NCBI GenBank assembly: GCA_023261805.1
Contig: JAGDXV010000021.1
Coordinates: forward strand, 1-49,437
Direction of reading: 5' to 3'
DNA length: 49,437 bases
Origin: Candidatus Parvarchaeota archaeon
GTDB taxonomy: Archaea > Nanobdellota > Nanobdellia > Parvarchaeales > Parvarchaeaceae
Positions 1 through 47,450 of the stretch are shown piece after piece. Under the pieces are notes generated by a model, which ran no database searches, was not told the DNA's origin, and was given only the letters and a program-made list of their open reading frames with translations. The stretch's first letter is position 1; each line of letters opens with the position of its first letter. A program made the translations under genes and the position numbers.

Positions 1-1020
1 CTGATGTGATGATTCATAGCCATATACATCTACTACAACATTATTATTTAGCGTAATTTGTGTATATGCCCCTCCCCAATCTGATGAAGAAGTCAGAGTT
101 ATGCCATTATTAACCGAGCCGCTCCAATAAGTAGAGCTCCACCCACATTTAAGCGTTGTTCCAGCAAAGTTATCATAGAAGTTGAACACATTCGCCCCAT
201 CATCATACTCTCCATATATTGGAGAAAGCTGTGGAGCTTCACCGACATTTATACTATTAAACAAGTTTGTGGATTTCGGAGCGAAGCCCATATAAATTGT
301 TATAGATGAATCTGCAGGTATAGAGCCTATCTTTATCCACCAAATTGCATTTGTCGACGAATAACTTTCAAGCCAGGACGGTATTATTGTTCCATTGGGA
401 TAGAAGAACTCAACATTCTGTCCGAAATAACCTCTTGTGGTATTGATATAGGGCCAGACGAAACTCGTGTATGAAATATTTACCATCTGCTGAAATGGAT
501 TTGAAGTTGATGAAGATTGTGTATTTGTTATTATAACTGAAATGGGAGAGATCACTTTCCCGCTTCCAACTTGAACGTTCACTACACCGTAGCTATAAAG
601 AGGCGCTGAAACTCCAGACGAGATCATTAGATAGGAGATGTTAACATTCAAAGAAGCACTTGAAAACTTTGAACCGAAATATCCAGATACAAAACAATAG
701 CCAGACTGCCCTGGATAAAGGGTTTTTTGTGTGCAGGAACTGCCGTAGAATGTGCGTCCATTTGAAGTCACAACCCTTATGTTTGTTATATTAACCGGCG
801 AATTCCCGCTGTTCCTCAAAAAAAGACCAAGCAAACTTCCATTTGCAACCGCATCAGATGGTTTAACCCCCGAGAATCCAACTATTGTAGGTGTAGAAGT
901 AAAATAAGAAGGAGTGAATACATTCAAAGAAAAAATTATCGATATAACAAGTGCGATAATCAAAACAATTATCCCATATGTAACCAAAAACTCTAGAGAT
1001 GCCTGAGCCTTTTCCATCAT
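1..1020 (-). CDS. class III (type IV prepilin-like) signal-peptide surface protein, partial (C-terminus lies beyond window start)
   Basis: Absent from the ORF track because it runs off the edge. The reverse frame 1-1020 has no stop in 340 codons (checked triplet by triplet). N-terminus MMEKAQASLEFLVTYGIIVLIIALVISIIF is a QxSxEF(L) motif plus hydrophobic helix, typical of archaeal prepilins. Further on, SSTNAIWWIKIGSIPADSSITIYMGF resembles DUF2341-type surface domains. Confidence 0.6.
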   Translation of the reverse strand, partial: MMEKAQASLEFLVTYGIIVLIIALVISIIFSLNVFTPSYFTSTPTIVGFSGVKPSDAVANGSLLGLFLRNSGNSPVNITNIRVVTSNGRTFYGSSCTQKTLYPGQSGYCFVSGYFGSKFSSASLNVNISYLMISSGVSAPLYSYGVVNVQVGSGKVISPISVIITNTQSSSTSNPFQQMVNISYTSFVWPYINTTRGYFGQNVEFFYPNGTIIPSWLESYSSTNAIWWIKIGSIPADSSITIYMGFAPKSTNLFNSINVGEAPQLSPIYGEYDDGANVFNFYDNFAGTTLKCGWSSTYWSGSVNNGITLTSSSDWGGAYTQITLNNNVVVDVYGYESSHQ

Positions 1021-1973: not shown

Positions 1974-3239
1974 TTAAATTTGATTTAGATCAGAAAGCAG
2001 GATGTTTTCTATCCTTAAAAGAAGAGTATTTGAGAAGGCCAGTTCCAATTCCCTTGTTCTGCCGTATCTTCCATTGCTCCTTATTTTTGACATTATCAGC
2101 GAATTGTAATCCATGTCTGCTATAAGATCAGAAACCCTTCTGAAGGTCAACTTCTTCAGACCGAACCTGTCAGCATATTTGAAGTAATACTCATATACCT
2201 CTCCGCTGTAAACTTTCCCCATTTTTTTAGCCTTGCTTGCAGCTATCAGAGAATAAAGCACGCATTTCGCCTGTTTCGTCATCGATTTGACCATTTCTTC
2301 TGTTATATTCTGCTCAAGTATTTCATTCGCCTTATCGAGATGCTCCTCTTTTATCATTGAATCGCCCGATTGCTGGGCAATCTCGCCGGCTACACGAAGA
2401 AGATTAAGCGCCTTTCTGATGTCTCCATTTTCTTGTGCAGCCAAGGCCGCACATTTTTGAATTACGCCTTCTCCAAGTGCATTTTCAAAGAAAGCGTCTC
2501 TGGCTCTGATGGAAAGTATGTCCGCTATCTCTACGGCATTGTAAGGCCTGAAAACAATCTCAACAGGACTTAAGGAACTTTTAACTCTTTGGTCGAGAAG
2601 AGACTTAAGATTCGTGTTGTTTGATATTCCTATTATTGATAGCTTTGATTTCTTAAGCAGCTCGTTCATTCTCAACAAGCTGTAAAGTATCTCATCTCCG
2701 CTGTGTTGTATCAGCTTCTCGATTTCGTCTAATATTATTATCACTACTCTTTCCTTTGAATCTATCACAGATATCAGTTTTTTGTACAGGATGCTGACTG
2801 AAAGGCCGCTCACGGGTGCTTTGATTCCAAATATTGTGCATAAATTAGATATAAGGCGGTATTCTGTTATATTGTTCTCGAGTCTGCAGTTTATGTAAAG
2901 GGGCATCACATCAACCTCTTTCTCCATAGCTGTGGAAGCAAGATTGTGCGCAACGTATCTTGTCACAAGCGATTTTCCCGTGCCTGAAAAGCCATAGATC
3001 AAAACATTCGAAACACGCTCTAAAAGAAGACTAGGAGCAAGAACGCTTGAAAGCTTTTGTATCTCTTCATCTCTGTGAAGTATTACATCAGGAACAAAAG
3101 ATGAGGATAAAATCTCTTTATCCTTAAATATTCGTTTCTTTAGAAGAAACTCGTTGAAAATTTCTTTAGGATCAACAGGCTTCTTTGCCTGTGTTTGCGG
3201 TAATAAGTCGTTTATTGGCTTTAAATCATTTTGATCCAT
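1974..3239 (-). CDS. cdc6: Orc1/Cdc6 replication initiator
   Basis: Walker A GFSGTGKS, Walker B IIILDEIE, AAA+ lid and C-terminal winged helix; adjacent to a repeat-bearing AT-rich intergenic region. Confidence 0.95.
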   Translation of the reverse strand: MDQNDLKPINDLLPQTQAKKPVDPKEIFNEFLLKKRIFKDKEILSSSFVPDVILHRDEEIQKLSSVLAPSLLLERVSNVLIYGFSGTGKSLVTRYVAHNLASTAMEKEVDVMPLYINCRLENNITEYRLISNLCTIFGIKAPVSGLSVSILYKKLISVIDSKERVVIIILDEIEKLIQHSGDEILYSLLRMNELLKKSKLSIIGISNNTNLKSLLDQRVKSSLSPVEIVFRPYNAVEIADILSIRARDAFFENALGEGVIQKCAALAAQENGDIRKALNLLRVAGEIAQQSGDSMIKEEHLDKANEILEQNITEEMVKSMTKQAKCVLYSLIAASKAKKMGKVYSGEVYEYYFKYADRFGLKKLTFRRVSDLIADMDYNSLIMSKIRSNGRYGRTRELELAFSNTLLLRIENILLSDLNQI

Positions 3240-3249
3240 ACCTTGACCA

Positions 3250-3269
3250 TTTCCTGTCGAAAACGACGG
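3250..3269 (+). repeat. ORB-like element tttcctgtcgaaaacgacgg
   Basis: Matches 3557-3576 over the core tttccNgtcgaaa; resembles the archaeal mini-ORB ttccagtggaaac. Confidence 0.5.
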
Positions 3270-3315
3270 CTAAATGATAATACTATGAACGTTACTTGTA
3301 TTTAAATGTTTTATT

Positions 3316-3341
3316 GCACTTTAGTTATATAACTAGAGTGC
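3316..3341. repeat. 26-nt near-perfect palindrome gcactttagttat/ataactagagtgc
   Basis: 13-nt arms with one mismatch, read directly from the sequence. Confidence 0.7.
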
Positions 3342-3365
3342 AAGGAGAGAGTAGAGATACCTATG

Positions 3366-3378
3366 TTTCTTATGGAAA
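3366..3378 (-). repeat. mini-ORB-like element (reverse complement tttccataagaaa)
   Basis: Inverted copy of 3486-3497 (ttccataagaaa); together they bracket the AT-rich stretch. Confidence 0.5.
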
Positions 3379-3485
3379 TATTTTGTATATAATATAATTA
3401 ATTATTTTTGAGGATTTCTCTTCTTATTTCTATATTGAATTAAACAAAAATAATAAATAAAATTTCCATAGGAAATTTAAGTGTG

Positions 3486-3497
3486 TTCCATAAGAAA
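3486..3497 (+). repeat. mini-ORB-like element ttccataagaaa
   Basis: Inverted partner of 3366-3378. Related copies are tttccataggaaa at 3463-3475 and tttccaatgaaaa at 3543-3555. Confidence 0.5.
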
Positions 3498-3556
3498 AAT
3501 TCCTAAATTTAGTAGATTTCTGATTACCATTTTCATCCTACATTTCCAATGAAAAG

Positions 3557-3576
3557 TTTTCCAGTCGAAACAGTGG
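3557..3576 (+). repeat. ORB-like element ttttccagtcgaaacagtgg
   Basis: Closest match in the window to the archaeal ORB core (ttccagtNgaaac); direct repeat of 3250-3269. Confidence 0.55.
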
Positions 3577-3660
3577 TAACTTTTTCTATTTTTAATATTT
3601 TGTTGTCATATAAACTTATCATTCTTTTTTACTGTGTAATAATTTTAAAGACCGAAAAGT

Positions 3661-3668
3661 ATTTATAT
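3661..3668 (+). promoter_or_regulatory. TATA box (tttatata) for the 3692 gene
   Basis: Lies 24-31 nt upstream of the ATG at 3692, consistent with a leaderless or short-leader archaeal transcript. Confidence 0.4.
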
Positions 3669-3691
3669 AAGTTAAAACCATAATACTACTC

Positions 3692-6172
3692 ATGCATTCG
3701 AAGATTTTTGATGATGTAACGATGGTGATAATTTTAGTCACACTACTCCTCAGCGTGATAGGCGTATCGCATGCTCAACAACCATGTTCGAATCTTGTGA
3801 TAAATGAGAGTACTCAGCTGACTGGGTTAGTGAATGATTCCGATTGCTTTCTTGTGATTCAAAAGGGTGCAATCCTTTCTGCCGAAAATAGTAGAATAAT
3901 TACTCAAGGTATATTGATAAAAAATGGCACTTTAGATGTGACCGGTTCATTCTATTCTAATGCTAAAGTGATTAATATTACTAGATTCGGTGTTCTTGAG
4001 ACAGATGGAGGAATTATAAATAACGACAATGTGACAATTAATTTATCAAATCTTGTTAATTTTAGTAATTATGGAGTAGTTTATTTGCACCAATTCATAT
4101 TTAAATCAATTAACTTTGATAATTATGGAAAAATTTATCAATATGAAGCATCCACAAACAATTCATTGGGAAACGGGACTTCATATTTTCATTCATATTG
4201 CGGTTCGGGAGCTGGAGGAGAAGGTTACGCATCGTCCGGATCGATAAGCTTCTACGGTGGGAGCACAGTAGCAGCGGGTGGTGCCGGCCAGCTTTCTAGC
4301 GGGTCCTTTACGCAAGGTATGAAGTCTCCATTGAAGTCAACAACTTATGTGTTGAATTATTCTCTTCTTGCTGGGGCGGGTGGCGGCGCCTTTTTCTACA
4401 ATCTTAATACAATCTCAACAACATTCCCGGGCGGTTTTGGAATGTCTGGTTTGGTTATAATAGCCGACAAGTTTTACAATAATGGAACTATTTATGATCA
4501 AGGCCAGGCGTTTGATCCTTATTCGGTGTCAGAGATCAGACATTATGGATATGAGTATGATGGTTTAGGTGGAGGTGGCGGCTCGGGATGTGTTGAGGTG
4601 ATAGCTAACAAGACATATAATCCGGGGTCAATAAATGTTTCAGCGATAAAGTATGCCTATCCGGGCTCTTCTTTCATTACACAAGGCGGATCTGGACAAG
4701 TGTTTTTCTTTAATGTATCTACTAAAAAGTTATCAGAATTAGGGTTAAATCTTACTACAAATAGTGAGAATAACATCACTGAAAATTCACATGAAAACTT
4801 TACTATCAAAGAAGAGGGTTTACCTTATAATACAACTTGGTCGATCAATTATGGAGGCAAGTCATTCATTTTCGATAGCCCAACTATTATACTTAATTTT
4901 TCATCGAATAGTAGTATATTTAATGTTAATATTGTAGACCTCAACGGGAGCATCTACTATCCTTATCCAAGCGCAGGTGAGGCATCAAATAATAAAACCA
5001 TTTTGATAGATTTCTTCCTTCCAAGTAAAACTATTTATAACAATAAAACAACAAATAACGTTTATAAAAATACTATTTTTAACAATAAAACTCTTATCTA
5101 TAATGAGACTATCAATCTGACTTCACTTGAGAACGTTCTGAAGAGTAAACTTTCTAATATAAGCAGCAATATTTCAAGCAGTTTATTGAATAAGTTTTCT
5201 AATTTGATAAAAAACATCTCTGATGAAAATTTATTGATCAATCAAATAGATGAGAACGTCTCAAAAAGTTTTAATGAAAGTTTTCTCTTATTTAAGACTA
5301 TTAAAAATATCTCTTCAGATAACGCATTTACACTCAATTCAACTGAGCAAACAGAGGCCAAGAATATGTCGAAGCTTGATTCACTCTTAAATGATCTTTC
5401 ATCTAAGATTTTATACATGAATGAGAGTCTTGAGAAAATTCAGTCGATTATGAATGATAATGAAATTGACATGAATGATCTTCTTTATTCCATAAATTCA
5501 ACAGATTACAAAAGCGAAGCCAGCATTAATAAAACATTGTACAATGAGATTGCCTCTTTAGATAGATCTGTCCTCCAAATAGCCAGTTCTCAGGCTCAAA
5601 ATTCTTTGAATGTGTCTGCTCTAAACAATTATCTCAACGGGTTAAATTCAAATATTGATGCAAATTCCGCGCAGATTTCAGCTATCAATAAGTATGTTGG
5701 AGGATTAAGCTCCGATCTAAATTCAATTTACGAGACTATAGAAAATGGTAACAATATTACAATAAGTAACGAGAATACTTTGAACTCTCTAATGAATAAT
5801 TTAAGTTATGAAATTAATATGACCCAAAAACTGGTCAATAAAACATCTGATCCGGTTTTGTACGGGAATTATAGCCTCGACATGAAAAACACCAAAGGCC
5901 TTCTTAATATCACACAGAATGGATCAACAGTCACATATTTCTTTGGGCCCGAAAACAACACCGCAGAAAACGTTACTTTGATAGAGGGGAAGCAACGCAT
6001 TAGGATCGTTTTTCTACCACAGGATCTAATGAAGACTTTCACCACAGCCCCATCAAACAGCAGTTCAAACAAAGGCAACCTTTCCTCAGGGCAGACACAA
6101 GGAGGATCTATATTCTCCATATTGAGTGGGTTTTTCTACAAGTTATCATCTTCAATTTCCTCTTTGATTTGA
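3692..6172 (+). CDS. large secreted Gly-rich / Asn-Ser-rich surface protein (beta-helix-like head, coiled-coil-like stalk), function unknown
   Basis: Sec-type signal (LLLSVIGVSHA/QQ). Gly blocks (GSGAGGEG, AGAGGGAFFYN, GLGGGGGSG) alternate with short hydrophobic strands. The C-terminal half is Asn/Ser/Leu-rich with very many N-x-S/T sequons. Confidence 0.7.
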   Translation: MHSKIFDDVTMVIILVTLLLSVIGVSHAQQPCSNLVINESTQLTGLVNDSDCFLVIQKGAILSAENSRIITQGILIKNGTLDVTGSFYSNAKVINITRFGVLETDGGIINNDNVTINLSNLVNFSNYGVVYLHQFIFKSINFDNYGKIYQYEASTNNSLGNGTSYFHSYCGSGAGGEGYASSGSISFYGGSTVAAGGAGQLSSGSFTQGMKSPLKSTTYVLNYSLLAGAGGGAFFYNLNTISTTFPGGFGMSGLVIIADKFYNNGTIYDQGQAFDPYSVSEIRHYGYEYDGLGGGGGSGCVEVIANKTYNPGSINVSAIKYAYPGSSFITQGGSGQVFFFNVSTKKLSELGLNLTTNSENNITENSHENFTIKEEGLPYNTTWSINYGGKSFIFDSPTIILNFSSNSSIFNVNIVDLNGSIYYPYPSAGEASNNKTILIDFFLPSKTIYNNKTTNNVYKNTIFNNKTLIYNETINLTSLENVLKSKLSNISSNISSSLLNKFSNLIKNISDENLLINQIDENVSKSFNESFLLFKTIKNISSDNAFTLNSTEQTEAKNMSKLDSLLNDLSSKILYMNESLEKIQSIMNDNEIDMNDLLYSINSTDYKSEASINKTLYNEIASLDRSVLQIASSQAQNSLNVSALNNYLNGLNSNIDANSAQISAINKYVGGLSSDLNSIYETIENGNNITISNENTLNSLMNNLSYEINMTQKLVNKTSDPVLYGNYSLDMKNTKGLLNITQNGSTVTYFFGPENNTAENVTLIEGKQRIRIVFLPQDLMKTFTTAPSNSSSNKGNLSSGQTQGGSIFSILSGFFYKLSSSISSLI

Positions 6173-6174
6173 TT

Positions 6175-6768
6175 ATGGAAGACAAAGATCTTGATAAATT
6201 ATATGACTTGATATACAAGCTTAATGAAGAAGTCGCCGAATTGAAGAGGCGGAGTGAGGAAGTCAAACAAGATCCTGATGAAAGTCAAATGGATGTTGTA
6301 ACGGATCAGGAGCACGTGCTTGTAGATCCTCATTCCCTCGGCGAATACAAGAATGTATCTTTACCGAATGGAAGCGTGCTGAAGATGCGCACTTATCCTA
6401 TGTGTGTAAATGGTAGGCACGTAATAAATGATCTTAGTGATATTGTTTTCTGCTCGAGATGCGGTGGTGCAATATGCAGCAAACATGCACTCGATATAGA
6501 CCCTCCTTTGTGTAAGAATTGTATCAGGGAAGAAGTGGGTATTCTGAGCGAAGCAGAGATTGCTGTGCTTGTAGCGGTTTCAAAAGGAGTGCCTTTTTGG
6601 AGAATGACAAAGACTTTGAAAGTTAGCAGAGGTCTTGTCAGCAAAAGTCTGGAAAAACTCAGATCGCTTGGTTTCATAAGGCTTGGCTTTCCAAACTTTC
6701 TGCGTTATGAGACGACGATGGATGGAGATAATTTCATCAGACTCGCTAGTTTCATATACGATATTTAA
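6175..6768 (+). CDS. zinc-ribbon plus winged-HTH protein
   Basis: Cys cluster (C...CSRCGGAIC..H...CKNC) followed by LSEAEIAVLVAVSKG...VSRGLVSKSLEKLRSLGFIR. The ATG at 6175 is 2 nt after the upstream stop; the track start at 6169 is TTG. Confidence 0.6.
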   Translation: MEDKDLDKLYDLIYKLNEEVAELKRRSEEVKQDPDESQMDVVTDQEHVLVDPHSLGEYKNVSLPNGSVLKMRTYPMCVNGRHVINDLSDIVFCSRCGGAICSKHALDIDPPLCKNCIREEVGILSEAEIAVLVAVSKGVPFWRMTKTLKVSRGLVSKSLEKLRSLGFIRLGFPNFLRYETTMDGDNFIRLASFIYDI

Positions 6769-6771
6769 TTT

Positions 6772-8709
6772 ATGGATCTGGATAAGCTTTCGCAAATAGT
6801 TGAGGAAATGAATCTTTATAATGGAAAGGCAGACTTATCAAAGCTGAGGAGCTTAGTTGACAGGTACGCGAAAACATATGACAGGCAGATGGGAGAGTTC
6901 ATACTTTCGCAGATTCAAAAAGAGCTTTTTGATTTAAAGAGAAAGGCGCTTATTTCTGTCAATCAAGGGACGACGGCAATAAGAAGTGAAGATGCCGACA
7001 TGCGAATCGGTAAAATAGGCAATAGTGATTTTTTCCTATCCTCAAAAGATTTTAATAGGAATATTTTGATCACAGGCTCTGTTGGCCACGGTAAAACAAC
7101 ATTGGTTGCAGCCATGCTAAGGGAGCTGATCAAGAAGAACATCAACTTTCTGGTTTTTGATATAAAGAGAGATTATTGGAGTCTCGCGCTTAATAAGGAC
7201 ACTTTTTGTGTGGATGTCAGGAAAATAAAGATAAATCCGTTAGAGGCTCCTCCAAATGTAGACCTGAAAGAGTGGGCGGTTCATGTAGCCGATTTCTTTG
7301 CTCATTCTTTCTCTTTGCTTATAGGCAGCAGAGATTTTCTTCTCTTATCGCTCTTATCTCTCTATTCGCAATGGAAACATGAGTATTCTCCTTCATTGAG
7401 CGATTTGTCCAAGTTTATAGAACTTCAGGTTAAACCAAACGAGTACAGCACCGTTGTCCTTAATCGTTTGAGAGCTCTCACTTCGTCAAATAGTTTTCTT
7501 GACTGTAATCATGGCCTTTTACTTGATAAATTTGCGGACAAGAATCTCATCTTAGGTATAGATAAGTTAGGTCTTGCTGAACAGAAATTTGTCGCCTCTT
7601 ATTTTCTTTCTTTTCTATATTTTCTCAACATGAACTCAAATCATAGAAACAAACTTCAGAAAGTTGTTGTGATAGATGATGCGCATTCTCTCCTTGATGT
7701 GAATCAAGAAATGAGTAAAGAGATGGGGATTCCCCTCCTTCACACCATAATAGCCAAAGCAAGAGAGTTTGGGATCGGTTTTGTTTTTGCAGATCAGCAA
7801 GTATCTTCGCTTCTTTCAACGGCAATAGAGAACACAAATACGAAGTTCATAGGGAGAACAAACCTTGTCAATGAGCTGGGTTCAATAATAGATTCTTCTG
7901 CCCTTCAGGAGGCGCAGGATAAAATTAGGTCGTTGGGCGTGGGAGAATTTTTAGTTGTTTCCCCTTCTGTTTCCTCTTTGGAGGTCATGAAGGCAGACAA
8001 CGTTGTTTTGGATAAAGGCATAGACCAGAGCATTCTAGAGATGAAAAATCTGCAGCATAAAGAACTTTTCTCTTTCATAAGGTATTCTGATTCAGAGGAG
8101 AGGACAGCCATTTTCATTAAAGAGCTCTTGGATAACCCATTTGCGAATATTAGTCAGCACATTAAGAATTTATCGGGGAGTATAAACAGGGATGGTTTTC
8201 TACTTTTTAGGAATGAATTATTTCATGATGATTTGATATACGAGGTCAAGATAAAATTAGATGAGAACAGAGAGGCAAAATTTCTTTATGTGAATGAAGA
8301 TAAAAAGGAAAGAGTAATGAAACTCCTCTATGGAGACCCGAAACCGATAGAAAACAACAGAGAATTTAGGCAGATGCCGAAGGTTCTCAGCAGAAGTGAA
8401 TTTATGTCTTTATTACTGAGAAAACTCGCAAAGACTGTTTTAAGGAGAAACAATCTCAGATTTGATGAGGATGAAAATGGTTTGCTCATAAGAGATAAGA
8501 GGGTTTATATTGTCTTTATGCACGACCTTCTTTCACTGGCCAAGTTACTTGAGACGCCTTTCAGCAAGGTAATAGATGTTGTACCGGACAATGTGAATGA
8601 CGCTGAAATAATTGTTGACTTATTGAAGATTATGAAAGGAGGAGATATCTCCGCATTTCATGTTGCCCACATCGACACCCTCGATAAAATCATCTTAAAC
8701 TATCTTTAA
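6772..8709 (+). CDS. HerA/FtsK-superfamily (COG0433/DUF87-like) P-loop ATPase with about 200 aa C-terminal extension
   Basis: Walker A GSVGHGKT followed by FLVFDIKRDY; INPLE; Walker B VVVIDDAH; FADQQVSSL. Starts 3 nt after the upstream stop. Confidence 0.75.
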   Translation: MDLDKLSQIVEEMNLYNGKADLSKLRSLVDRYAKTYDRQMGEFILSQIQKELFDLKRKALISVNQGTTAIRSEDADMRIGKIGNSDFFLSSKDFNRNILITGSVGHGKTTLVAAMLRELIKKNINFLVFDIKRDYWSLALNKDTFCVDVRKIKINPLEAPPNVDLKEWAVHVADFFAHSFSLLIGSRDFLLLSLLSLYSQWKHEYSPSLSDLSKFIELQVKPNEYSTVVLNRLRALTSSNSFLDCNHGLLLDKFADKNLILGIDKLGLAEQKFVASYFLSFLYFLNMNSNHRNKLQKVVVIDDAHSLLDVNQEMSKEMGIPLLHTIIAKAREFGIGFVFADQQVSSLLSTAIENTNTKFIGRTNLVNELGSIIDSSALQEAQDKIRSLGVGEFLVVSPSVSSLEVMKADNVVLDKGIDQSILEMKNLQHKELFSFIRYSDSEERTAIFIKELLDNPFANISQHIKNLSGSINRDGFLLFRNELFHDDLIYEVKIKLDENREAKFLYVNEDKKERVMKLLYGDPKPIENNREFRQMPKVLSRSEFMSLLLRKLAKTVLRRNNLRFDEDENGLLIRDKRVYIVFMHDLLSLAKLLETPFSKVIDVVPDNVNDAEIIVDLLKIMKGGDISAFHVAHIDTLDKIILNYL

Positions 8710-40530: not shown

Positions 40531-40768
40531 CTTTATTGATGAACGTTATATACTATTTAACCTTTTCGTTCTCCTGAAATGTGAGATTGATAGACGAAAT
40601 GACAAGAGATAATAAATATTAATTGAAAAAGAATCACATAGAGATATGCATAATCATATCGTGCCTGTCCTCCACGGAAGGAGGATCTGTCGCAAATCGG
40701 GGTGTTGAAGCTTGAGCCTCGATCGAAGACTTAGTGTGTTCCGCGCATTTGCTGTTTCAACAGGGCGT

Positions 40769-43132
40769 ATGAAAATACTGATCGCTTTGTTTGCGGTTTT
40801 GTTGTTCTTGGTGTTCGTCCAGCCATCTCACGCGGTTTCCGTGAGGGAGGTCCCTTTTCAGGGATCCGTGTGCCCTTATTTGACACCGCAGCAGATACAG
40901 GGCGCATACGGTTTCACTGACCTTTATTCGCAGGGTTTGACTGGAAGCGGCGAAGCCATCGCGATAATAGATGCTTACAATACCCCAAACATATTGCAGA
41001 ATGTTAATACCTTCGACTCATATTATGGTTTGCCTCAGCTGGTCAACGGTTCAAACTTTTTCGTTTACACGCCTCTCGGTCCGCTCGATCCAGCTAATTC
41101 GAATTGGACCGAAGAAACCACATTGGATGTTGAGATGGCCCACTCATTGGCCCCCGGGGCTAAAATATACCTGGTTCTGGCTCCAAATGACGGGGATTTA
41201 CTACAGGCGGTGAATTACACGATAAACAATCTCCCTGTTCAGATAATTTCAATAAGTTGGGGTTCCCCCGAGTTGGATTACTCTGCCTTTTCGATAAATT
41301 ACTATAATTCAATATTTCAGTCGGCCTATTCGAAGGGAATAAATGTATTCGTTGCCACCGGCGACATGGGAGCATACAACGGTTTCAGTACGCCGAATGT
41401 GAATTTTCCCGCTTCAAGTCCTTATGTCATCTCCGTGGGCGGGACGGTCTTGAGCGTCTCCGGTGATTCATACGCCGGCGAGACGGCATGGAGTGATAGT
41501 GGCGGCGGTTTCAGTGAGTATTTTTCGAGGCCCAGTTTTCAGCCAGACCTCGGATCGTATAGGGAGGTACCGGATGTCGCTTTTAATGCGGGCACCACCG
41601 TCTGTGCCTTCGTAAATGGCTCTTGGAGAGGCTTCATCGGCACGAGCCTCGCTGCCCCCTCCTGGGCAGCATTGGATGCTATACTGGATCAGAAACTTGG
41701 AGGAACAAGCCAGTTGCTTCCCACGCTTTACAATATATACAATAACTATGGAAACCTTGCTTTTCATCAGATAACGAGCGGTTGTAATGGATACTACTGC
41801 GCAAATGGTGGCTACAGTCTTGTGACCGGTCTTGGATCACCCATCGCAAATGCACTGGTCCAGATCCTCTCGAAGTCATCGGATACACTGACATTCTCAT
41901 CCAATGTTCCTGTTAAATTCAATCTGAATGGGGTCAATTACACGACCCCAATATCAATAAATCTTAGTTATGGGCAGAAGGTCACGCTTACAGCGTATAA
42001 TTTCTCCTTTGCAAACACAAAATATTCCTTCTCCTCCTTTTCAGGTCAAATCACTTCGAACAATAACACACTAACATTTTTTGTGAATTCATCGATGAAT
42101 ATAGTCATAGATTATGTAACGGAGTACGCTGTAAGAGAAAAACTGATGAACAGCACGAAGATCTTTTGGGTAGAGAATGGGAGCACAATAGATCTCAATC
42201 TCCCTCTCCAATACAATTCAAGTGGCATCCTCGGTACTCTCCTCGGCTTTTCGATGGATGATGGTCCCTTGATTCATCAGGACCATTTTTCATCTGTGGT
42301 GTACGCACCAATAAATATCTCCGCGGTGTTCGCGATTTATAATTCAACAAAGATAGTTTTCACCGGCGCCCCGTTCGGCGCATCAGCCATGGTCAGATAC
42401 GGAATATATACCCCTCTTTCAGCCAGTATATCTGAAACGGAGAGAACGGTATATAATGGTGATACCATCTACTATGCAGGCAGTGTGATATCGATATTTC
42501 CCCTGCCAACTTATGTCAATAACACAAGATACGTCGCTTATAACTTCACAGGTTATCCCGGAATGGAGAAAGTGATACGATTCTATGCTGAGAAGCCGAG
42601 CGGTCTCACTTTTATATCGTTGGACGGCAAAAAGGTGCTTCCCTCCTCGATCGTATTTCAGGATCCATTGGATCTCTATGTTAACGGGACCATCTGGTCT
42701 GTTCCTTCCTCAACACCGATCATAGAGAAGATGACATACGATGGTTTCAGCCTGCTGAATCACAGCCTTCCTGTCACATCTGGCCAGATCAAACTGAATG
42801 TGTCAACCCTTTCATTGAATGTCAATATTTTTTCAATACCCCTATCAAATGCGGCAGTCATACTGAGGATAGGAAACAGATCCGTCCAAAATCAGACAAA
42901 TTTTCTAGGTCAGGTTTCATTTCAAAATGTTCCGGATACAAGCTATAACCTTTCTATAGATGTTTATGGGAGAAACTATGAATATCCGCACATGAGCGGA
43001 TACGAAAATTCCATAGATGTCTATCCTTTGATATATCAGGTTTACCTGATGGTAGGTGCCATAGGCACGGTCATCCTGGTATTCGTGTTCTTTGAGTCGA
43101 TCAGAAGAAGATATATTAAAGGAAAGGTATAA
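40769..43132 (+). CDS. sedolisin (peptidase S53)-like serine-carboxyl protease, membrane-anchored, no recognisable propeptide
   Basis: Sec signal MKILIALFAVLLFLVFVQPSHA. S53 core: TPQQIQGAYGF, IAIIDAY, EETTLDVEMAH (E/D pair), ISISWG, GTSLAAPSWAAL (Ser). Followed by about 400 aa of sequon-rich beta domains and a C-terminal TM plus RRRYIKGK. Confidence 0.8.
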   Translation: MKILIALFAVLLFLVFVQPSHAVSVREVPFQGSVCPYLTPQQIQGAYGFTDLYSQGLTGSGEAIAIIDAYNTPNILQNVNTFDSYYGLPQLVNGSNFFVYTPLGPLDPANSNWTEETTLDVEMAHSLAPGAKIYLVLAPNDGDLLQAVNYTINNLPVQIISISWGSPELDYSAFSINYYNSIFQSAYSKGINVFVATGDMGAYNGFSTPNVNFPASSPYVISVGGTVLSVSGDSYAGETAWSDSGGGFSEYFSRPSFQPDLGSYREVPDVAFNAGTTVCAFVNGSWRGFIGTSLAAPSWAALDAILDQKLGGTSQLLPTLYNIYNNYGNLAFHQITSGCNGYYCANGGYSLVTGLGSPIANALVQILSKSSDTLTFSSNVPVKFNLNGVNYTTPISINLSYGQKVTLTAYNFSFANTKYSFSSFSGQITSNNNTLTFFVNSSMNIVIDYVTEYAVREKLMNSTKIFWVENGSTIDLNLPLQYNSSGILGTLLGFSMDDGPLIHQDHFSSVVYAPINISAVFAIYNSTKIVFTGAPFGASAMVRYGIYTPLSASISETERTVYNGDTIYYAGSVISIFPLPTYVNNTRYVAYNFTGYPGMEKVIRFYAEKPSGLTFISLDGKKVLPSSIVFQDPLDLYVNGTIWSVPSSTPIIEKMTYDGFSLLNHSLPVTSGQIKLNVSTLSLNVNIFSIPLSNAAVILRIGNRSVQNQTNFLGQVSFQNVPDTSYNLSIDVYGRNYEYPHMSGYENSIDVYPLIYQVYLMVGAIGTVILVFVFFESIRRRYIKGKV

Positions 43133-43140
43133 GATAAGAC

Positions 43141-45375
43141 ATGGAGGCAAGAAATTACACGGTAACGAGGGAAGAGGGGGACATAATCCTAACTCTGAAT
43201 GTCCCTCTGAATGTTCTTTACACGAACCCGGAAGACAATGAGGACATTTTTGAAAGAGTTGTGAATGCACTGATAGAGTCTGGCAATGCCACGTCCTTAG
43301 TGATATCGAGCGATAGAAACTACGTTTACGTGAAGGAGCAAGTTGATCTCTTCAACGGTGTCGCAAACGCCTACAAACAGCTTCTTCAGTCGGATATTGT
43401 CAAACCGTTCAGCCCGGATGCGAGGAGGGACTTTCCATCTGAGGTTTCGATGTTCGATTATATTCTTTATTCGAAGTTCAAGAGGGATCCGATAGGTGCG
43501 TATGTTCTAGGTGTGAGGGCATTGAGGGAAATGCGGGTCAAGGCGGAGAGGATCAAATCACCAGAATTGGAGCAGATAATAAATCAGTTCACAGAGCTGG
43601 TGGATGTCCTTGGAAAATTGGAGATCGTGAAGAGAAGCTACGATTATGTCCTTGGCTATAAAGTTGGAGATAGAGCACCTTACAAGGCGCTTCTTAGGCC
43701 GTTGATCAGGCCGAACTTCACGTACACGCGTATAATGGCTGAAGCACCGGTCTCTGCGGTGGAAATTGAGAGCTATAAGATAAACGATGCGGACGGGAGC
43801 GATGTCACAATATACAAGATACCTGGAGTTTCAAATTACCTGTACCATCTTTTTCCCCCTGAGTTAAGCTTGAATGTCGATGAATACAACCTTCTTGATC
43901 AAGTTAGGGCGGCCTTCATAGACTACAAGCCACAGGAGGCGGAATTCACAAACCCTCTGAGGATGAGGGAGGTCTTCTTCAACATAGGGAGGGATATGCT
44001 TGATGATCTGAATGTTAAGTTCAAATACAATCTTAAGTATCAGGAGATAGAAAAGCTCGCCAGGATCCTGGTCAGACTGACGGTCGGGTTTGGGATGACT
44101 GAGGTTGTTCTTTCCGATGAAAATGTGGAAGATGTGTATGTCAATGCACCTATAGGCTTGTCCACCCTTTTCATAAAGCATTCCAAATACGGTGAATGTT
44201 CATCGAACATCGTACCAAATGCTAAGGAGATAGATGCGTGGGCATCTAGGTTCAGATTGATGTCAGGAAGACCACTGGATGAGGGTCATCCGATCCTGGA
44301 TACGGAACTTGAAACTGAGAATGTCAGGGCAAGGGTAGCGATAGCACAGAGGCCCCTTTCACCAGGCGGGGTTAGCATAGCCTTCAGGAGGCACAGAAGC
44401 GAACCATGGACGATGCCGCTTTTCATAGACAATAAGATGGTCTCCCCTTTTGCCGCGGGCCTGCTTTGGTATCTTGTTGAGGGAGCGAGGACGATACTGA
44501 TAAGTGGAACCAGGGGGGCGGGGAAAACATCTCTTATGAGTGCGATGATGTCCCTCTTGATGAAGAAATACAGGATAATAACCGTTGAGGATACGCTTGA
44601 GCTTCCTATAGATTCATTTATAGGTTTAGGTTACGATATTCTCTCGATGAAAGTACAGAGCGCCATCTTCGGCGAGAAATCCGAACTTTCAGCGGAGGAG
44701 GGGATAAGGACCACCTTGCGTTTGGGCGATAGCGCCCTTGTGATAGGTGAGGTCAGGAGCACGGAGGCGAAGGCCCTCTACGAGGCGATGCGTGTGGGCG
44801 CCCTTTCAAACGTCGTCATGGGGACGATACACAGCGAGAACCCATACGGTGTTTTCGACAGAGTTGTAAACGATCTTGGTGTTCCAGTCACAAGTTTCAA
44901 GGCTACCGACATAATCGTTTCAGCTAACAAGATCAAGAGCATCGACAGGCTCACTGAGAAACGCCGTGTTCTTAACATCACAGAGGTTAGGAAGGACTGG
45001 ACAAAAGATCCACAGTATGAAGGGGGATTTGTTGACCTCGTTAAGTACGACATAGAAAAAGATGAACTGATTCCGACAGGAGATCTCCTTGAGGGCGATA
45101 GTTACGTTGTGAAACAGGTGGCTTCCAATGTGAAGGGATGGGCAGGGAATTGGGACGCTGTCCTTGAAAATATACAAACGAAAGGGGAGATACTCGATGC
45201 GATCGTAAAGTACGCAAAGAAGACCGGAAACAGATCAATTCTTGAGGCGAAATTCACATCGAAAGCGATAGACGCGTACTATGACATAATAGCCAATCTC
45301 AATGCGAAGTATGGCTACGCTGAATCTGGCAGTGTTAAAAGCGCATTCAATCTATGGCTAGAAGCACAAAAGTGA
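43141..45375 (+). CDS. FlaI/PilB-family type IV filament ATPase with extended N-terminal region (744 aa)
   Basis: Walker A SGTRGAGKTS, ITVEDTLEL, Walker B region GDSALVIGEVRS, His box MGTIHSE. Starts 8 nt after the S53 gene stop. Confidence 0.85.
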   Translation: MEARNYTVTREEGDIILTLNVPLNVLYTNPEDNEDIFERVVNALIESGNATSLVISSDRNYVYVKEQVDLFNGVANAYKQLLQSDIVKPFSPDARRDFPSEVSMFDYILYSKFKRDPIGAYVLGVRALREMRVKAERIKSPELEQIINQFTELVDVLGKLEIVKRSYDYVLGYKVGDRAPYKALLRPLIRPNFTYTRIMAEAPVSAVEIESYKINDADGSDVTIYKIPGVSNYLYHLFPPELSLNVDEYNLLDQVRAAFIDYKPQEAEFTNPLRMREVFFNIGRDMLDDLNVKFKYNLKYQEIEKLARILVRLTVGFGMTEVVLSDENVEDVYVNAPIGLSTLFIKHSKYGECSSNIVPNAKEIDAWASRFRLMSGRPLDEGHPILDTELETENVRARVAIAQRPLSPGGVSIAFRRHRSEPWTMPLFIDNKMVSPFAAGLLWYLVEGARTILISGTRGAGKTSLMSAMMSLLMKKYRIITVEDTLELPIDSFIGLGYDILSMKVQSAIFGEKSELSAEEGIRTTLRLGDSALVIGEVRSTEAKALYEAMRVGALSNVVMGTIHSENPYGVFDRVVNDLGVPVTSFKATDIIVSANKIKSIDRLTEKRRVLNITEVRKDWTKDPQYEGGFVDLVKYDIEKDELIPTGDLLEGDSYVVKQVASNVKGWAGNWDAVLENIQTKGEILDAIVKYAKKTGNRSILEAKFTSKAIDAYYDIIANLNAKYGYAESGSVKSAFNLWLEAQK

Positions 45376-47450
45376 GCGGAGACTACATAGACAAGTATTA
45401 CCTCAGCGGGGAACTGATACCGCAGGATCTCTATCAGAGTGACGCCCGTATAAGAGAAGAGGTCAAATCATTAGAGTATAAACTTTTCAAGCAGAAGAAC
45501 CCCTCACTTTTCTCAAGGATAATCAGGCTTGGATCCAATACCTTAGGCAGAGTTATAAAGTTTAACATCAATCCAGAGCAGGAGAAGAAGATTAACACGA
45601 TGATTTACCTCATCGGAGGGGACTACGATGCAAGGGAGCTTTATGGTTTCTCAATCTCAGTTCTCATTCTTGGGATGATCATAGGTGCCGCCCTTCTCAT
45701 ATTAGGCCAATACTTAGCAGGCATCGGTGCCATAGCAGCTGGGATCATTCTGATGCCGCTTATACAATCCTATCCAAAAAGAGAATTGAATATTAGGATG
45801 AGCAAGGCATCTAGCGATCTTGTGACTTTTGTTCTATATCTCGTCATATCAATGCGTCAAACCCCAAATTTAGAGACAGCTGTCCAATTTGCGTCAGATA
45901 ACCTTTCAAGCTATCTCGCTTTTGATCTTAAGAAGCTGATTTGGGACACGGCAGCAAGAAAATACAAGAACATAAAAGATGCCTTGGATGATTACTCAAC
46001 AAGATGGGCGAAGACGAGTCCAGCCTTCGTGGATTCGATATTTCTCATCGAGAGTTCGCTTTATCAAAGGGACGAAGAGACAAGACTTGAGCTGTTGGAT
46101 GAGGCATCCAATAGGATCCTGACAGGAACGCTGGAGATGATGAATACATATGCGATGTCCTTGAAGGAGCCTTTGAATATGATATACATGATGGGTATGG
46201 TCCTTCCCGTCCTCGGTCTGGTCCTTGCGCCGATGCTGATGGCTTTTGTAGCCATACCAGATTTCGGTCCTATGCTTTTTGTTGGTTACGATATAATTCT
46301 GCCTTTGATGATATATTTCATGATAAGAGACAGGCTCATCGCCAGACCGGCAGGTTTTGCTCCGCCGGATGTCGACAGGATACCAAACATACCAAAGATA
46401 GGGCACTTTTTTATCAAGATAGGAAAGAAGAAATATGATATCAATGCGATATTCCCAGCTATAGCCGTTTTTGTAGTCTTTCTAGCGGTATTCCTTTATC
46501 TTTCCCCATTGCTCGTAAACTTCTCTCCAGTCCAAGTTTACATCTCTCTCATCCTCACCGCAGGCATAGGCATGTCAATATACACATACCTTAAGCTTTC
46601 AATCTTTCAGATAAAAGCGGTGAGGGATCAGATAGCTTCGATAGAGAATTCATTCGCTGCGGCAACGTTTCAGCTTAGTTCATTCCTGTCGCAGGGGATG
46701 CCGGCAGAGACGGCCATAGTGAAAGTAAGCGAATCGATGAGGAACACTCCAGTATCGACTTTCTTTGATGTCACTGTAAACAACATAAAGCAGTTAGGCA
46801 TGAGTCTTAAAGATGCACTTTTCGATCCGGAGAACGGATCGACGGTTTTCTTTCCATCAGCGATGGTGATCGCTTCTATGAAGGTTTTCATGGAATCGGC
46901 GGAGAAAACCGTCAGGATAGCTGCGATGGCCATGTTATCTATATCAAGGCATCTCACAAATTTGAAGAGGATAGACGATGAGATAAAGAATCTCTTGGAT
47001 GATGTTACATCGGGAATGCGCGTTGAGGTTGGTCTTCTCAGCCCAGTGATGGCGGGTATCGTAGTCGGGATGACAACCCTCATAGGTTCTGTTCTGACTT
47101 CACTTTCATCCTCTATATCATCTATAAGTTCGGATCTTGGAAGCTCATCAGGCCTTGGTGGAGCGAACAGCGCTCTCCCCCTCGCTTTCGGTCTTTTTAA
47201 TCTTTCGGGCGGGGCCATACCACTTTATGTTTTTCAACTTGTCATCGGAATATATCTGATCTTCCTAGGCATCATAATAGGTTATTCGATAGCCAACATA
47301 GACCAACCAAACGATCCGATCGAGATAAGGGAAAAGATAGCCTCTGTCATCTTCAGTTCTATCATAATATATATCCTCATAGCTTTCATCACAACCTTTG
47401 CATTTGCCTCTTTAGGCAGCTCCGTCCTTTCGGCGACTCAGTTCATGTGA
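45354..47450 (+). CDS. FlaJ/PilC-like polytopic membrane platform protein (two T2SSF-like domains, 698 aa)
   Basis: Two cytoplasmic T2SSF-like domains (MRQTPNLETAVQFASDN... and LSQGMPAETAIVKVSESM...), each followed by TM bundles. Ser-rich loop SLSSSISSISSDLGSSSG. Overlaps the ATPase gene by 22 nt. Confidence 0.8.
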   Translation: MARSTKVSGDYIDKYYLSGELIPQDLYQSDARIREEVKSLEYKLFKQKNPSLFSRIIRLGSNTLGRVIKFNINPEQEKKINTMIYLIGGDYDARELYGFSISVLILGMIIGAALLILGQYLAGIGAIAAGIILMPLIQSYPKRELNIRMSKASSDLVTFVLYLVISMRQTPNLETAVQFASDNLSSYLAFDLKKLIWDTAARKYKNIKDALDDYSTRWAKTSPAFVDSIFLIESSLYQRDEETRLELLDEASNRILTGTLEMMNTYAMSLKEPLNMIYMMGMVLPVLGLVLAPMLMAFVAIPDFGPMLFVGYDIILPLMIYFMIRDRLIARPAGFAPPDVDRIPNIPKIGHFFIKIGKKKYDINAIFPAIAVFVVFLAVFLYLSPLLVNFSPVQVYISLILTAGIGMSIYTYLKLSIFQIKAVRDQIASIENSFAAATFQLSSFLSQGMPAETAIVKVSESMRNTPVSTFFDVTVNNIKQLGMSLKDALFDPENGSTVFFPSAMVIASMKVFMESAEKTVRIAAMAMLSISRHLTNLKRIDDEIKNLLDDVTSGMRVEVGLLSPVMAGIVVGMTTLIGSVLTSLSSSISSISSDLGSSSGLGGANSALPLAFGLFNLSGGAIPLYVFQLVIGIYLIFLGIIIGYSIANIDQPNDPIEIREKIASVIFSSIIIYILIAFITTFAFASLGSSVLSATQFM

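Follow-up and report, generated by a model that had tools for sequence, protein, structure and literature searches.

What is the function of an operon in which the gene for a surface protein directly precedes genes for a zinc-binding winged-helix protein and a HerA/VirB4-like ATPase? The operon lies in a window of 49,437 nucleotides (contig JAGDXV010000021.1) from a member of the Parvarchaeales, tiny archaea of acid mines (ARMAN type), and the placement of this order among the DPANN archaea is in line with the host-dependent organism assumed in the original prediction. The window is an ordinary chromosomal region with genes for MCM, aIF2-beta, Nuo subunits and CysRS. At positions 3692-8709, the three tightly spaced genes predicted earlier (here g1, g2 and g3) were confirmed as open reading frames of 826, 197 and 645 aa separated by gaps of 2 and 3 nt. 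The statement that the triad matches no named system was upheld; no description of such an operon was found in the literature searched, and genes for NurA, an integrase or capsid proteins, already reported to be missing nearby, were absent from the neighbours scanned. The function proposed below for this origin-linked operon, for which none has been described previously, is one that we infer. The features of the locus are listed in Table 1.

Table 1. Features of the orc1-g1-g2-g3 locus (positions in the window)
Feature	Position (nt)	Residues (aa)	Strand	Remarks
orc1/cdc6 replication initiator	1974..3239		-	Pfam Cdc6_lid 1.5e-22, Cdc6_C 1.1e-18
Probable oriC spacer	3240..3691		.	75% A+T, six ORB-like dyads
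ORB-like dyads, TTCCAnnGGAAA type	3251, 3366, 3464, 3486, 3544, 3559			assigned by motif
TTTATATA box	3662-3669			23 nt upstream of g1 ATG
g1, surface glycoprotein (predicted)	3692..6172	826	+	
g1 signal peptide	3692-3778	1-29	+	
g1 Gly-rich head	3779-4741	30-350	+	conserved; 15% Gly
g1 middle		between head and stalk	+	beta-rich, variable
g1 Asn/Ser/Leu stalk		~470-730	+	heptad-periodic
g1 hydrophobic C-terminal tail	6098-6169	~803-826	+	conserved
g2, putative adaptor	6175..6768	197 from ATG	+	
g2 coiled coil		N-terminal	+	
g2 double zinc module	6403-6522	77-116	+	eight invariant Cys/His
g2 winged helix	6532-6750	~120-192	+	C-terminal to zinc module
g3, HerA/VirB4/DndH-type P-loop ATPase	6772..8709	645	+	
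g3 helical N-domain		1-63	+	
g3 ATPase core	7000-8001	77-410	+	
g3 winged helix, PadR/RTP type	8077-8331	436-520	+	
g3 degenerate nuclease-like alpha/beta domain	8392-8706	541-645	+	

The N-terminus of g1 is its sole strongly hydrophobic window and is followed by SHA/QQ, and the protein contains 49 N-x-S/T sequons compared with 21.2 ± 3.8 in shuffled sequences, in agreement with the predicted Sec signal and abundance of sequons. The glycine-rich head and coiled-coil-like stalk were likewise recovered, the latter as a 3.5-residue hydrophobic periodicity of 1.21 compared with 0.39 ± 0.11 in shuffles; the term "giant" was an overstatement for a protein of this length. Searches of Pfam, PHROG and PDB with the g1 sequence gave no matches, and a cytoplasmic domain is lacking. 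Across the Parvarchaeales g1 can be aligned in the head only (22-33% identity), and it evolves much faster than g2 and g3. From its sequence, g1 appears to be a lineage-specific, N-glycosylated and stalked envelope protein.

The zinc ribbon and winged helix predicted for g2 were both present, and in the alignment residues C77, H82, C93, C96, C101, H104, C113 and C116 are invariant. The winged helix matched the C-terminal domain of archaeal CheF (7ovp, 2.5e-4), and there were weak matches to Lrs14 and ArsR. An alternative TTG start at position 6169 would give a 4-nt overlap with g1.

The assignment of g3 as a DUF87-type ATPase proved correct (Pfam 3e-11, above the cut-off), and its Walker A (GSVGHGKT), Walker B (VVIDDAH) and FADQQ motifs are invariant across the family. 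In Foldseek searches with the AF2 model (pLDDT 83.5 over the full length), matches were obtained with DndH-C (7es4, 1e-14), with SsoHerA (4d2i, 1.4e-14, among the top structural matches) and with VirB4 (4ag6, 3e-12), and TrwB was a further fold neighbour. Canonical HerA, which acts with NurA and with Mre11-Rad50, shares the RecA-like hexameric translocase core, but g3 lacks the HAS-barrel, for which the original prediction had proposed a check, and has three helices and one hairpin at the N-terminus instead. Moreover, the NCBIfam HerA models score g3 far below their cut-offs, and no gene for Mre11 or Rad50 is located near g3. The tail described earlier as uncharacterised, named in the same check, is folded in the model: the C-terminal ~210 aa form two additional domains not present in HerA (pLDDT 91.1 for aa 436-645), a winged helix and a domain that aligns with the intact PD-(D/E)xK nuclease domain of relatives, minus the D and ExE/K residues. 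Taken alone, homology of the latter domain to the nuclease is weak (hhalign probability 52%; best Foldseek nuclease match E 0.15; no match in a remote-domain HMM search).

Conservation of the neighbourhood, proposed as a test of the triad, was found within the Parvarchaeales. Every related locus with enough sequence showed the identical order with tight junctions: g2 lies immediately upstream of g3 in 28 of 28 loci having upstream DNA, and g2 is in turn immediately preceded by a g1 homologue of 500-830 aa at all loci with space for one (g1-g2 junctions, -11 to +4 nt). This adjacency is far beyond chance. All 17 related loci extending that far have the orc1/cdc6 gene upstream of g1 in divergent orientation, and synteny of orc1, spacer and triad holds in every informative locus at 34-51% g3 identity, the block remaining constant while flanking genes vary from genome to genome. 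The locus is bound to orc1 and an ORB-rich spacer throughout, and the idea of an isolated surface or DNA-uptake module was not supported.

The spacer between orc1 and g1 is probably a replication origin (oriC), as predicted from motifs only. Its 452 nt contain six distinct ORB-like sites compared with ten in the remaining 49 kb, and ORB-like dyads flank an AT-rich core at ~3380-3460. Enrichment was seen in all 15 loci tested (2-6 distinct sites per orc1-g1 spacer), and a dyad pair spaced by 22 bp is kept in about half of these spacers. The cumulative GC-skew minimum of the window falls within the 2-4 kb bin, which is weak evidence for an origin because gene strand confounds skew. The TTTATATA box may be a TATA box.

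In the closest outgroup, represented by one contig (L036), orc1, g2 and g3 form an operon with 8-nt overlaps, g1 is absent, and ORB-like dyads lie upstream. Its Orc1 is 50% identical to that of the window. A second example of this arrangement was sought in two metagenome scans and not found. The conserved core of the operon is g2-g3.

The wider family of g3 is large, with 183 cluster representatives at E<=1e-30 sharing the plan of a helical N-terminus, a HerA/VirB4/DndH-like ATPase core, a winged helix and a PD-(D/E)xK nuclease. These uncharacterised proteins (e.g., P0066, P0194, P0193, P0053) are encoded in integrative elements and defence islands of archaea and bacteria and are colinear with g3 over its full length (E 1e-60 to 1e-67 against the g3 profile). 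A nuclease-type C-terminal domain is present in 112 relatives, and at least 59 retain EH..E..D..ExE/K, whereas this set of residues is kept by none of the 48 Parvarchaeales-type proteins; both the Parvarchaeales clade and the outgroup have intact ATPase motifs and have lost the nuclease catalytic residues. Seven loci encoding intact-nuclease relatives were examined. In four (L031, L035, L040, L041), a g2-like partner with coiled coil, zinc module and winged helix and a two-TM protein of ~70 aa are encoded directly upstream of the ATPase; an integrase gene follows the cassette in two of these (L040, L041), and the L040 element includes a Cdc6-like gene. The other three loci have genes for an integrase, resolvase, methyltransferase, AbiEii or RadC around them. 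Intact-nuclease relatives are also found beside ThiF plus JAB, AbiEii, HNH and methyltransferase genes. In contrast to these settings, the locus in the Parvarchaeales is found on the chromosome throughout the order, where it is tied to orc1 and oriC; it has gained g1 and lacks the two-TM protein between adaptor and ATPase. The occurrence of g2 homologues with the ATPase in the mobile-element loci and in the outgroup (E 4e-31), far outside the Parvarchaeales lineage, supports the earlier suggestion that g2 is an ATPase adaptor.

Our preferred reading, to which we assign a probability of roughly 0.4, is that orc1, the ORB-rich origin and g2-g3 represent an old mobile-element-derived replicon module now fixed in the Parvarchaeales chromosome. 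Archaeal origins and their orc1 genes have been proposed to be captured from extrachromosomal elements, as in the case of the Sulfolobus origins; this idea fits the mobile-element ancestry proposed here. The captured module would have become an origin-linked DNA motor with its adaptor, co-expressed with an envelope protein. g2-g3 are tied to orc1 in two ways, by an overlapping operon in the outgroup and divergently across the origin in the Parvarchaeales, where the lineage-specific envelope gene g1 is coupled in front. The g3 ring may translocate along or pump double-stranded DNA at the expense of ATP. The winged helix and the dead nuclease domain of g3 would hold DNA or partners instead of cutting, and a g2 dimer formed via the coiled coil could bridge the motor to DNA or another protein; we infer DNA binding, ring formation and the g2-g3 contact alike. 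Together, g2 and g3 would handle the origin-proximal chromosome, acting in its positioning, its segregation or a form of processing coupled to replication, and not in defence.

FtsK/SpoIIIE and Streptomyces TraB combine a ring ATPase with a subsequent DNA-reading winged helix and move whole chromosomes or plasmids. g3 seems to follow the same design logic, and its location close to the origin and to replication genes would fit a chromosome-handling role, but it has no membrane domain, its Pfam FtsK_SpoIIIE match (E 0.043) is under the cut-off, its winged helix is of the PadR/RTP type, for which likeness to the gamma domain is not established, and the adaptor is a separate protein. g1, presumably a stalked surface protein with N-glycans whose transcript, shared with g2-g3, starts beside the origin, might merely obtain high, replication-coupled expression from its placement, or the placement could link envelope growth to the chromosome cycle. 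One point against the origin-module reading is the absence of a mechanistic explanation for translational coupling of an extracellular g1 to cytoplasmic g2 and g3.

In an alternative reading, g1 has no functional link to g2-g3: it would simply be the principal S-layer or envelope gene, which ended up between the origin and a g2-g3 pair already linked to orc1, and inertia would maintain the operon. The absence of g1 from the outgroup, its far faster evolution and an architecture like that of envelope glycoproteins in archaea, with signal peptide, sequons, stalk and tail, agree with such a history. We nevertheless consider it doubtful: the junctions are held within a few nt, often overlapping, over very deep divergence, and such spacing would be hard to keep in the absence of selection. 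In addition, g1 was neither lost nor relocated in any locus.

An apparatus for surface-linked DNA transfer or uptake with mobile-element ancestry, close to the original prediction, is unlikely. Here, g1 would be an adhesin or fusion-type surface protein that makes contact with a host or with sister cells, g3 would pump double-stranded DNA in the manner of TraB/FtsK, steered by its winged helix, and g2 would be the substrate adaptor, with transfer starting at origin-proximal DNA. The ancestral cassette of integrase-bearing elements, in which a small protein with two TM segments adjoins the ATPase in a manner recalling VirB3-VirB4, would suit this proposal, as would the fold neighbours VirB4 and TrwB, the dependence of the organism on a host, and a tightly coupled, extracellular g1 that evolves fast like contact proteins. 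The best curated family match of g3 is the DNA-import ATPase CedD (NCBIfam, E 1.7e-15), but the match covers the ATPase domain only and scores 56.7 bits against a cut-off of 600. CedD has a TM domain, an N-terminal domain and a HerA/VirB4-like ATPase and is essential for DNA import (PMC11868833); g3 has neither a TM helix nor a VirB4-type N-domain, and the ancestral two-TM partner is missing here. Furthermore, the operon encodes no polytopic channel (CedA, VirB6 or ComEC type), which DNA uptake or delivery would require, and neither a pilin nor a relaxase; the type IV pilus-like genes found nearby are not kept as neighbours in related loci, and the outgroup retains g2-g3 with orc1 and without g1.

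Somewhat less likely still is a retained defence or exclusion function, with g2-g3 acting on invading DNA like HerA-type anti-phage systems and lying near the origin by chance. The best PADLOC matches of g3 were mad8 (1.6e-19), DndH and defence-type HerA, but all are confined to the ATPase core. Because intact-nuclease relatives adjoin ThiF/JAB, AbiEii and methyltransferase genes, a defence role is possible for the ancestor or clade. In the Parvarchaeales, however, the nuclease residues of an effector are lost, no other effector gene adjoins g2-g3, and the distribution is order-wide and syntenic rather than patchy; in the outgroup, the pair lies in an overlapping operon with the gene of the replication initiator. 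The assumption that g3 is an FtsK-like secretion or assembly ATPase for g1 (cf. EccC, type VII secretion) with g2 as chaperone or regulator has very little probability: the g1-g2 junctions suggest stoichiometric co-expression in all loci, the conserved tail of g1 might serve as a signal for recognition, the winged helix of g2 is similar to the CheF domain, which binds proteins, and the outgroup ATPase has a weak EccCb match, but Sec export suffices for g1 because it carries a standard N-terminal signal peptide, the outgroup and the mobile elements have g2-g3 but not g1, and g3 bears DNA-type modules (winged helix, nuclease remnant) and no membrane anchor.

As regards the origin-module reading, conserved genes immediately adjoining the main origin and its orc1 gene occur elsewhere in archaea, as in the case of the uncharacterised oap genes of haloarchaea. 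Their proteins are unrelated to those described here, which are a motor ATPase and a putative adaptor, encoded in one lineage within an overlapping orc1 operon.

The triad of g1 (surface protein), g2 (zinc/winged-helix adaptor), and g3 (HerA-like ATPase) was confirmed as three tightly spaced ORFs, with gaps of 2 nt and 3 nt in the window. Some 30 related loci were surveyed for conservation with tblastn, ORF calls, and HMM searches. In all 28 loci having upstream DNA, g2 was located immediately 5′ of g3, and wherever the contig has room a protein of 500-830 aa with the g1 head is encoded immediately 5′ of g2, with g1-g2 junctions ranging from -11 to +4 nt. The neighbourhood conservation by which the original prediction was to be judged was thus found: order and tight junctions are kept across the Parvarchaeales loci. 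Among the full-length g3 relatives (34-51% identity), every label is Parvarchaeota, Parvarchaeum (ARMAN-4, ARMAN-5), Acidifodinimicrobium, or GTDB "Nanoarchaeota". Genes bordering the orc1-g1-g2-g3 block vary from genome to genome, and elsewhere the window carries ordinary chromosomal genes (MCM, aIF2-beta, Nuo subunits, CysRS, tRNAs). As originally stated, the scan of neighbouring genes in the window turned up no NurA, integrase, or capsid gene. Neither the operon nor the locus tags of ARMAN-4 appeared in the literature searched. The parts of the triad fall in known superfamilies; new are its composition, its link with orc1 and the origin, and its dead nuclease.

Location of the features in the window and in related loci and proteins
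Feature	Sequence	Position	Strand	Remark
Predicted oriC spacer	window	3240-3691
g1	window	3692-6172	+	826-aa ORF
g2	window	6175-6768	+	197 aa counted from ATG
g3	window	6772-8709	+	645-aa ORF
N-domain helices	g3 protein	aa 3-14, 23-34, 38-63		AF2; then single hairpin 77-89 before P-loop core
P-loop core	g3 protein	aa 77-410		AlphaFold
Winged helix	g3 protein	aa ~436-520		AlphaFold
Final alpha/beta domain	g3 protein	aa 541-645		AlphaFold
orc1	L036 (outgroup contig)	3092-4339		same strand as g2 homologue and ATPase
g2 homologue	L036	4332-4904		hhalign probability 99.9%, E 4e-31
ATPase P0052	L036	4897-6666		same strand as orc1
ThiF cassette of P0193/P0044 type	L035	4609-9082
ThiF cassette of P0193/P0044 type	L031	5885-10190
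g1 homologue in two ORFs	L001	6122-8578
g1 homologue in two ORFs	L005	840-3926
g1 segment, aa ~367-440	window	4790-5010
Oxidoreductase alpha ORF	window	10068-12038		TTG start
Spurious N-terminal part of this ORF	window	11868-12038	-	~57 residues
~105-nt RNA	window	11965-12064	+
~105-nt RNA	L001	14681-14787	+
~105-nt RNA	L002	3357-3462	-
First pilus-like cluster	window	12101-15572	+
Second pilus-like cluster	window	40712-47450	+

The original prediction treated the triad as an isolated surface module, a view that does not hold, as orc1 and an ORB-rich spacer that it had not seen adjoin the triad. The orc1/cdc6 gene lies divergently upstream of g1 in 17 of the 17 loci reaching that far. In the window the spacer between them is 75% A+T, with an AT-rich core that six ORB-like dyads (TTCCAnnGGAAA type) surround; the remaining 49 kb contain ten. 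Between two and six distinct dyads per spacer were present in all 15 loci tested, and a dyad pair spaced 22 bp is kept in about half of these spacers. As predicted from these motifs, the spacer carries an archaeal oriC signature. A second arrangement is known from a single contig, L036 (33% GC), in which orc1, a g2 homologue, and the ATPase P0052 follow one another with 8-nt overlaps between neighbours, and in which g1 is absent from the operon. Orc1 of L036 is 50% identical to that of the window, and ORB-like dyads are located upstream of its gene. Two metagenome scans yielded no further outgroup loci of the orc1-g2-g3 type. The L036 operon shows that g2-g3 is tied to the initiator in two gene arrangements and indicates that g1 is a later, Parvarchaeales-specific addition.

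The original assignment of g3 to the COG0433/DUF87-type ATPases, based on GSVGHGKT and VVIDDAH, was borne out by Pfam DUF87 (3e-11; 44.3 bits versus a cut-off of 23.2), and the motifs GxxGHGKT (Walker A), hhhDDAH (Walker B), and DQQ are invariant in the family. The "uncharacterised tail" turned out to consist of a winged helix and an alpha/beta domain. The AlphaFold model (pLDDT 83.5) comprises a three-helix N-domain, a P-loop core, and these two domains; the HAS-barrel that was to be looked for is not present in it. Foldseek matched the core to DndH-C (7es4, 1e-14), Sulfolobus HerA (4d2i, 1.4e-14), VirB4 (4ag6, 3e-12), and also TrwB. A separate model of residues 436-645 (pLDDT 91.1) revealed a winged helix of the PadR/LmrR/RTP type, with PadR, LmrR, Pex, and RTP as best fold matches (E 0.03-0.2). 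For the last domain, Foldseek with this segment gave nothing significant; EcoT38I ranked best among the nucleases (E 0.15).

The g3 profile, run in a full HMMER scan, collected 183 cluster representatives at E<=1e-30. The Parvarchaeales clusters were followed by a single intermediate, P0052 (E 1e-89), and then by many proteins of 620-730 aa with the same four-part architecture as g3. Profile hits reach positions 6-628 for P0061, 69-635 for P0176, and 15-612 for P0052, and the relatives are colinear over their full length in the alignment, both C-terminal domains included. The last domain of these relatives bears the PD-(D/E)xK signature EH...E...D...ExE/K, in which H630, E651, and D661 do not vary and E674 scarcely does. 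This nuclease-type domain was matched by 112 relatives, at least 59 of them with the strict motif, which occurs in none of the 48 Parvarchaeales-type proteins. The last domain of the latter aligns colinearly to the relatives' nuclease (hhalign E 1.5e-4, probability 52%, 102 columns) without the D and ExE/K positions, and that of P0052 is degenerate in a like manner. Within this ATPase/winged helix/PD-(D/E)xK family, g3 shows full-length homology, whereas intact EH, E, D, and ExE/K occur only among the remote relatives. Judging from the alignment, we regard the last domain of g3, with moderate confidence, as a degenerate nuclease domain. One family member, P0145 (976 aa), has an extra C-terminal region of ~350 aa whose match to the NrS-1 primase-polymerase helix-bundle domain (HBD) stays below threshold (E 4e-4) and which has no PDB match; it is possibly a fusion to a replication enzyme.

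Where the nuclease is intact, adaptor and ATPase are encoded on mobile elements or in islands of the defence type. The elements of P0066 and P0194 carry, in this order, genes for an AAA ATPase, a g2 homologue (E 5e-17), a 69-aa two-TM protein, the ATPase-nuclease, an acidic protein, and a tyrosine integrase, with a Cdc6-like gene close by in one of the two. The loci of P0193 and P0044 consist of ThiF (E1-like), a g2 homologue, a two-TM protein of 74-78 aa, and the ATPase-nuclease, and in the P0193 locus a Prok-JAB gene precedes ThiF; this cassette has the look of a mobile-element or defence module, ubiquitin-like or E1-linked, that has yet to be described. Neighbours of P0198 and P0200 are DUF8104, methyltransferases, AbiEii, resolvase, and integrases, those of P0053 RadC and small ORFs. 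The g2 protein itself has eight invariant Cys/His within 40 residues followed by a winged helix, as expected from the zinc ribbon and wHTH first recognized in it. Its homologues stand upstream of the ATPase in L036, in the mobile-element loci L040 and L041 (5e-17), and in L031 and L035 (about 1e-10). With g2 the window has the upstream coiled-coil, zinc, winged-helix partner seen in these loci of the g3 family, and the partnering of the ATPase by g2 homologues in these loci argues that the pair is old.

Of the features originally described for g1, a signal-like N-terminus, a Gly-rich head, dense sequons, and a stalk with coiled-coil-like periodicity were recovered. Its sole strongly hydrophobic segment is N-terminal and followed by SHA/QQ, the head (residues 30-350) contains 15% glycine, and 49 N-x-S/T sequons compare with 21.2 +/- 3.8 in shuffles of its own composition, a 2.3-fold excess. 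In the stalk (residues ~470-730) a 3.5-residue hydrophobic periodicity of 1.21 was obtained versus 0.39 +/- 0.11 in shuffles; the same analysis found none in the head. Only the head is alignable order-wide (22-33% identity), the middle is variable among relatives, and a hydrophobic tail of ~20 aa is conserved in the relatives and weak in the window protein. The signal-like N-terminus and sequon excess would suit an archaeal S-layer or envelope glycoprotein; family and sequence searches gave no homology to known S-layer proteins, and a word-based search recovered only g1 itself. A segment FTIKEEGLPYNTTWSINYGG...YYPYP is common only to g1 and the L001 homologue; it may be akin to a beta-sandwich repeat that surface proteins of acidophilic archaea often carry. 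In L001 and L005 separate ORFs encode the head and the stalk of the homologue, divided in L001 by one in-frame stop with an ATG immediately after it; this could be a sequencing error or a genuine two-piece version. Short forms of 500-550 aa without most of the stalk occur in four loci (L026, L027, L028, L030).

The reading we prefer, at a probability of roughly 40%, is that g2-g3 is a captured replicon module that now serves as an origin-linked DNA motor with its adaptor and is co-expressed with an envelope protein. The module would have arrived with a captured replicon; g3 would be a ring DNA translocase, g2 would bridge it to DNA or to a partner, and the pair would act today on the origin-proximal chromosome. 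That g1 is an unrelated passenger with no functional link to g2-g3 appears unlikely to us; L036, which does without g1, speaks for it, and the tight junction that the g1-head gene keeps to g2 in Parvarchaeales speaks against it.

A DNA-transfer apparatus, in line with the surface-linked uptake or delivery module first proposed, is a rather improbable reading. It has in its favour the kinship of the g3 core to VirB4 and TrwB; against it stand the lack of a channel protein in the operon and of g1 in L036. Curated models matched only the g3 core and far under their cut-offs (CedD, 56.7 bits versus 600; VirB4, 30.7 versus 643). CedD is a TM-anchored DNA-import ATPase (PMC11868833). Membership in Ced/VirB4 was rejected, as the scores reach at most about a tenth of the cut-offs and both a TM segment and channel genes are absent; no T4SS-type neighbours are conserved across the related loci. 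FtsK/SpoIIIE proteins likewise have a membrane-spanning N-terminal domain, whereas g3 has no TM-grade window (Kyte-Doolittle maximum ~1.5 at residues 179-198, inside the core). The FtsK motor model PF01580 gave E 0.043 (13.7 bits versus a cut-off of 24), and the winged helix that follows the motor in g3 had no specific gamma-domain match. With canonical HerA, g3 has in common the RecA-like core, Walker A/B, and the HerA/FtsK-type fold; a HerA-NurA system was rejected, as g3 is without a HAS-barrel and a scan of its neighbours in the window and of the 10-kb flanks in L001, L002, and L004 turned up neither NurA nor Mre11-Rad50.

Retention as a defence system, to which the islands of the relatives and core-only matches to defence models (mad8, 1.6e-19; DndH, 1.8e-13) would point, is improbable to a higher degree: HerA-based anti-phage systems (SIR2-HerA, DUF4297-HerA, Mad, Dnd/Dpt) have adjacent effector or modification genes and occur in patchy islands, whereas no effector gene lies beside g3 and the locus is syntenic across the order. 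A role of g3 as biogenesis ATPase for g1, its partner in the triad, is hardly credible given g3 homologues in an operon without g1. A provirus or packaging module (spike plus A32/FtsK-type ATPase) was also rejected: no relatives were found in IMG/VR or GenBank phages, g1 and g2 have no PHROGs matches, and the best BFVD matches are phage HerA-like proteins, with A32-type ATPases reaching just 1e-5 to 1e-3.

Chromosome positioning and separation in archaea are still poorly understood, and we know of no described machinery for them in DPANN lineages. Because a motor ATPase and its adaptor are kept beside, or in an operon with, the initiator order-wide, the module is a concrete, testable candidate for this function. 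The capture would be traceable from integrase-bearing elements with an intact nuclease to a chromosomal form without the nuclease residues. A fuller version, which we consider doubtful, takes the operon as a chromosome-segregation or DNA-translocation machine of DPANN archaea derived from a captured mobile element. An Orc1-coupled, nuclease-off ring ATPase and its zinc/winged-helix adaptor would grasp origin-proximal DNA and, in Parvarchaeales, be coupled to a stalked envelope glycoprotein, tying chromosome handling to the surface or even passing DNA between cells. If so, archaea would have in this operon their first candidate for an origin-linked DNA motor system, and it would clearly exemplify how a replicon module turns to a core chromosome function. 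In these host-dependent cells the operon's tie to a glycosylated, fast-evolving surface protein singles out proteins worth seeking in existing ARMAN metaproteomes and tomograms.

Several further features were observed. The TL2-4.bin18 MAG contains two different g2-g3 copies, on L009 (JAKAAG010000007), which is too short to include orc1 and g1, and on L011 (JAKAAG010000028), which includes both; it is probably a mixed bin. The first pilus-like cluster of the window is a type IV pilus/archaellum-like set made up of a T2SSE ATPase of 506 aa and a pair of T2SSF membrane proteins, with tRNA-Val next in line. It was rejected as part of the operon unit, as only the window, L001, and L002 have it downstream, whereas ARMAN-4, ARMAN-5, and most of the other loci do not. 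A second secretion/pilus-like cluster encodes proteins of 806 aa (with a subtilase domain), 744 aa (a T2SSE-type ATPase), and 698 aa (without family match). Between the genes for a 2-oxoacid:ferredoxin oxidoreductase alpha subunit and the T2SSE-type ATPase lies a conserved structured RNA of ~105 nt, missed by ARAGORN and by Rfam at gathering thresholds; neighbours of the L002 copy differ. The oxidoreductase ORF is translated across this RNA in its spurious part, and its homology to relatives begins at residue 57-58. Rfam YrlA scored 44.7 bits, its gathering score being 69, with an E-value of 4e-9 in 251 nt. Because the parts follow in the order T-arm, acceptor-like hairpin, D-arm, and a long outer stem encloses them all, the RNA looks like a circularly permuted tRNA or Y-RNA-like element; the outer stem shows four compensatory pairs among the three sequences.
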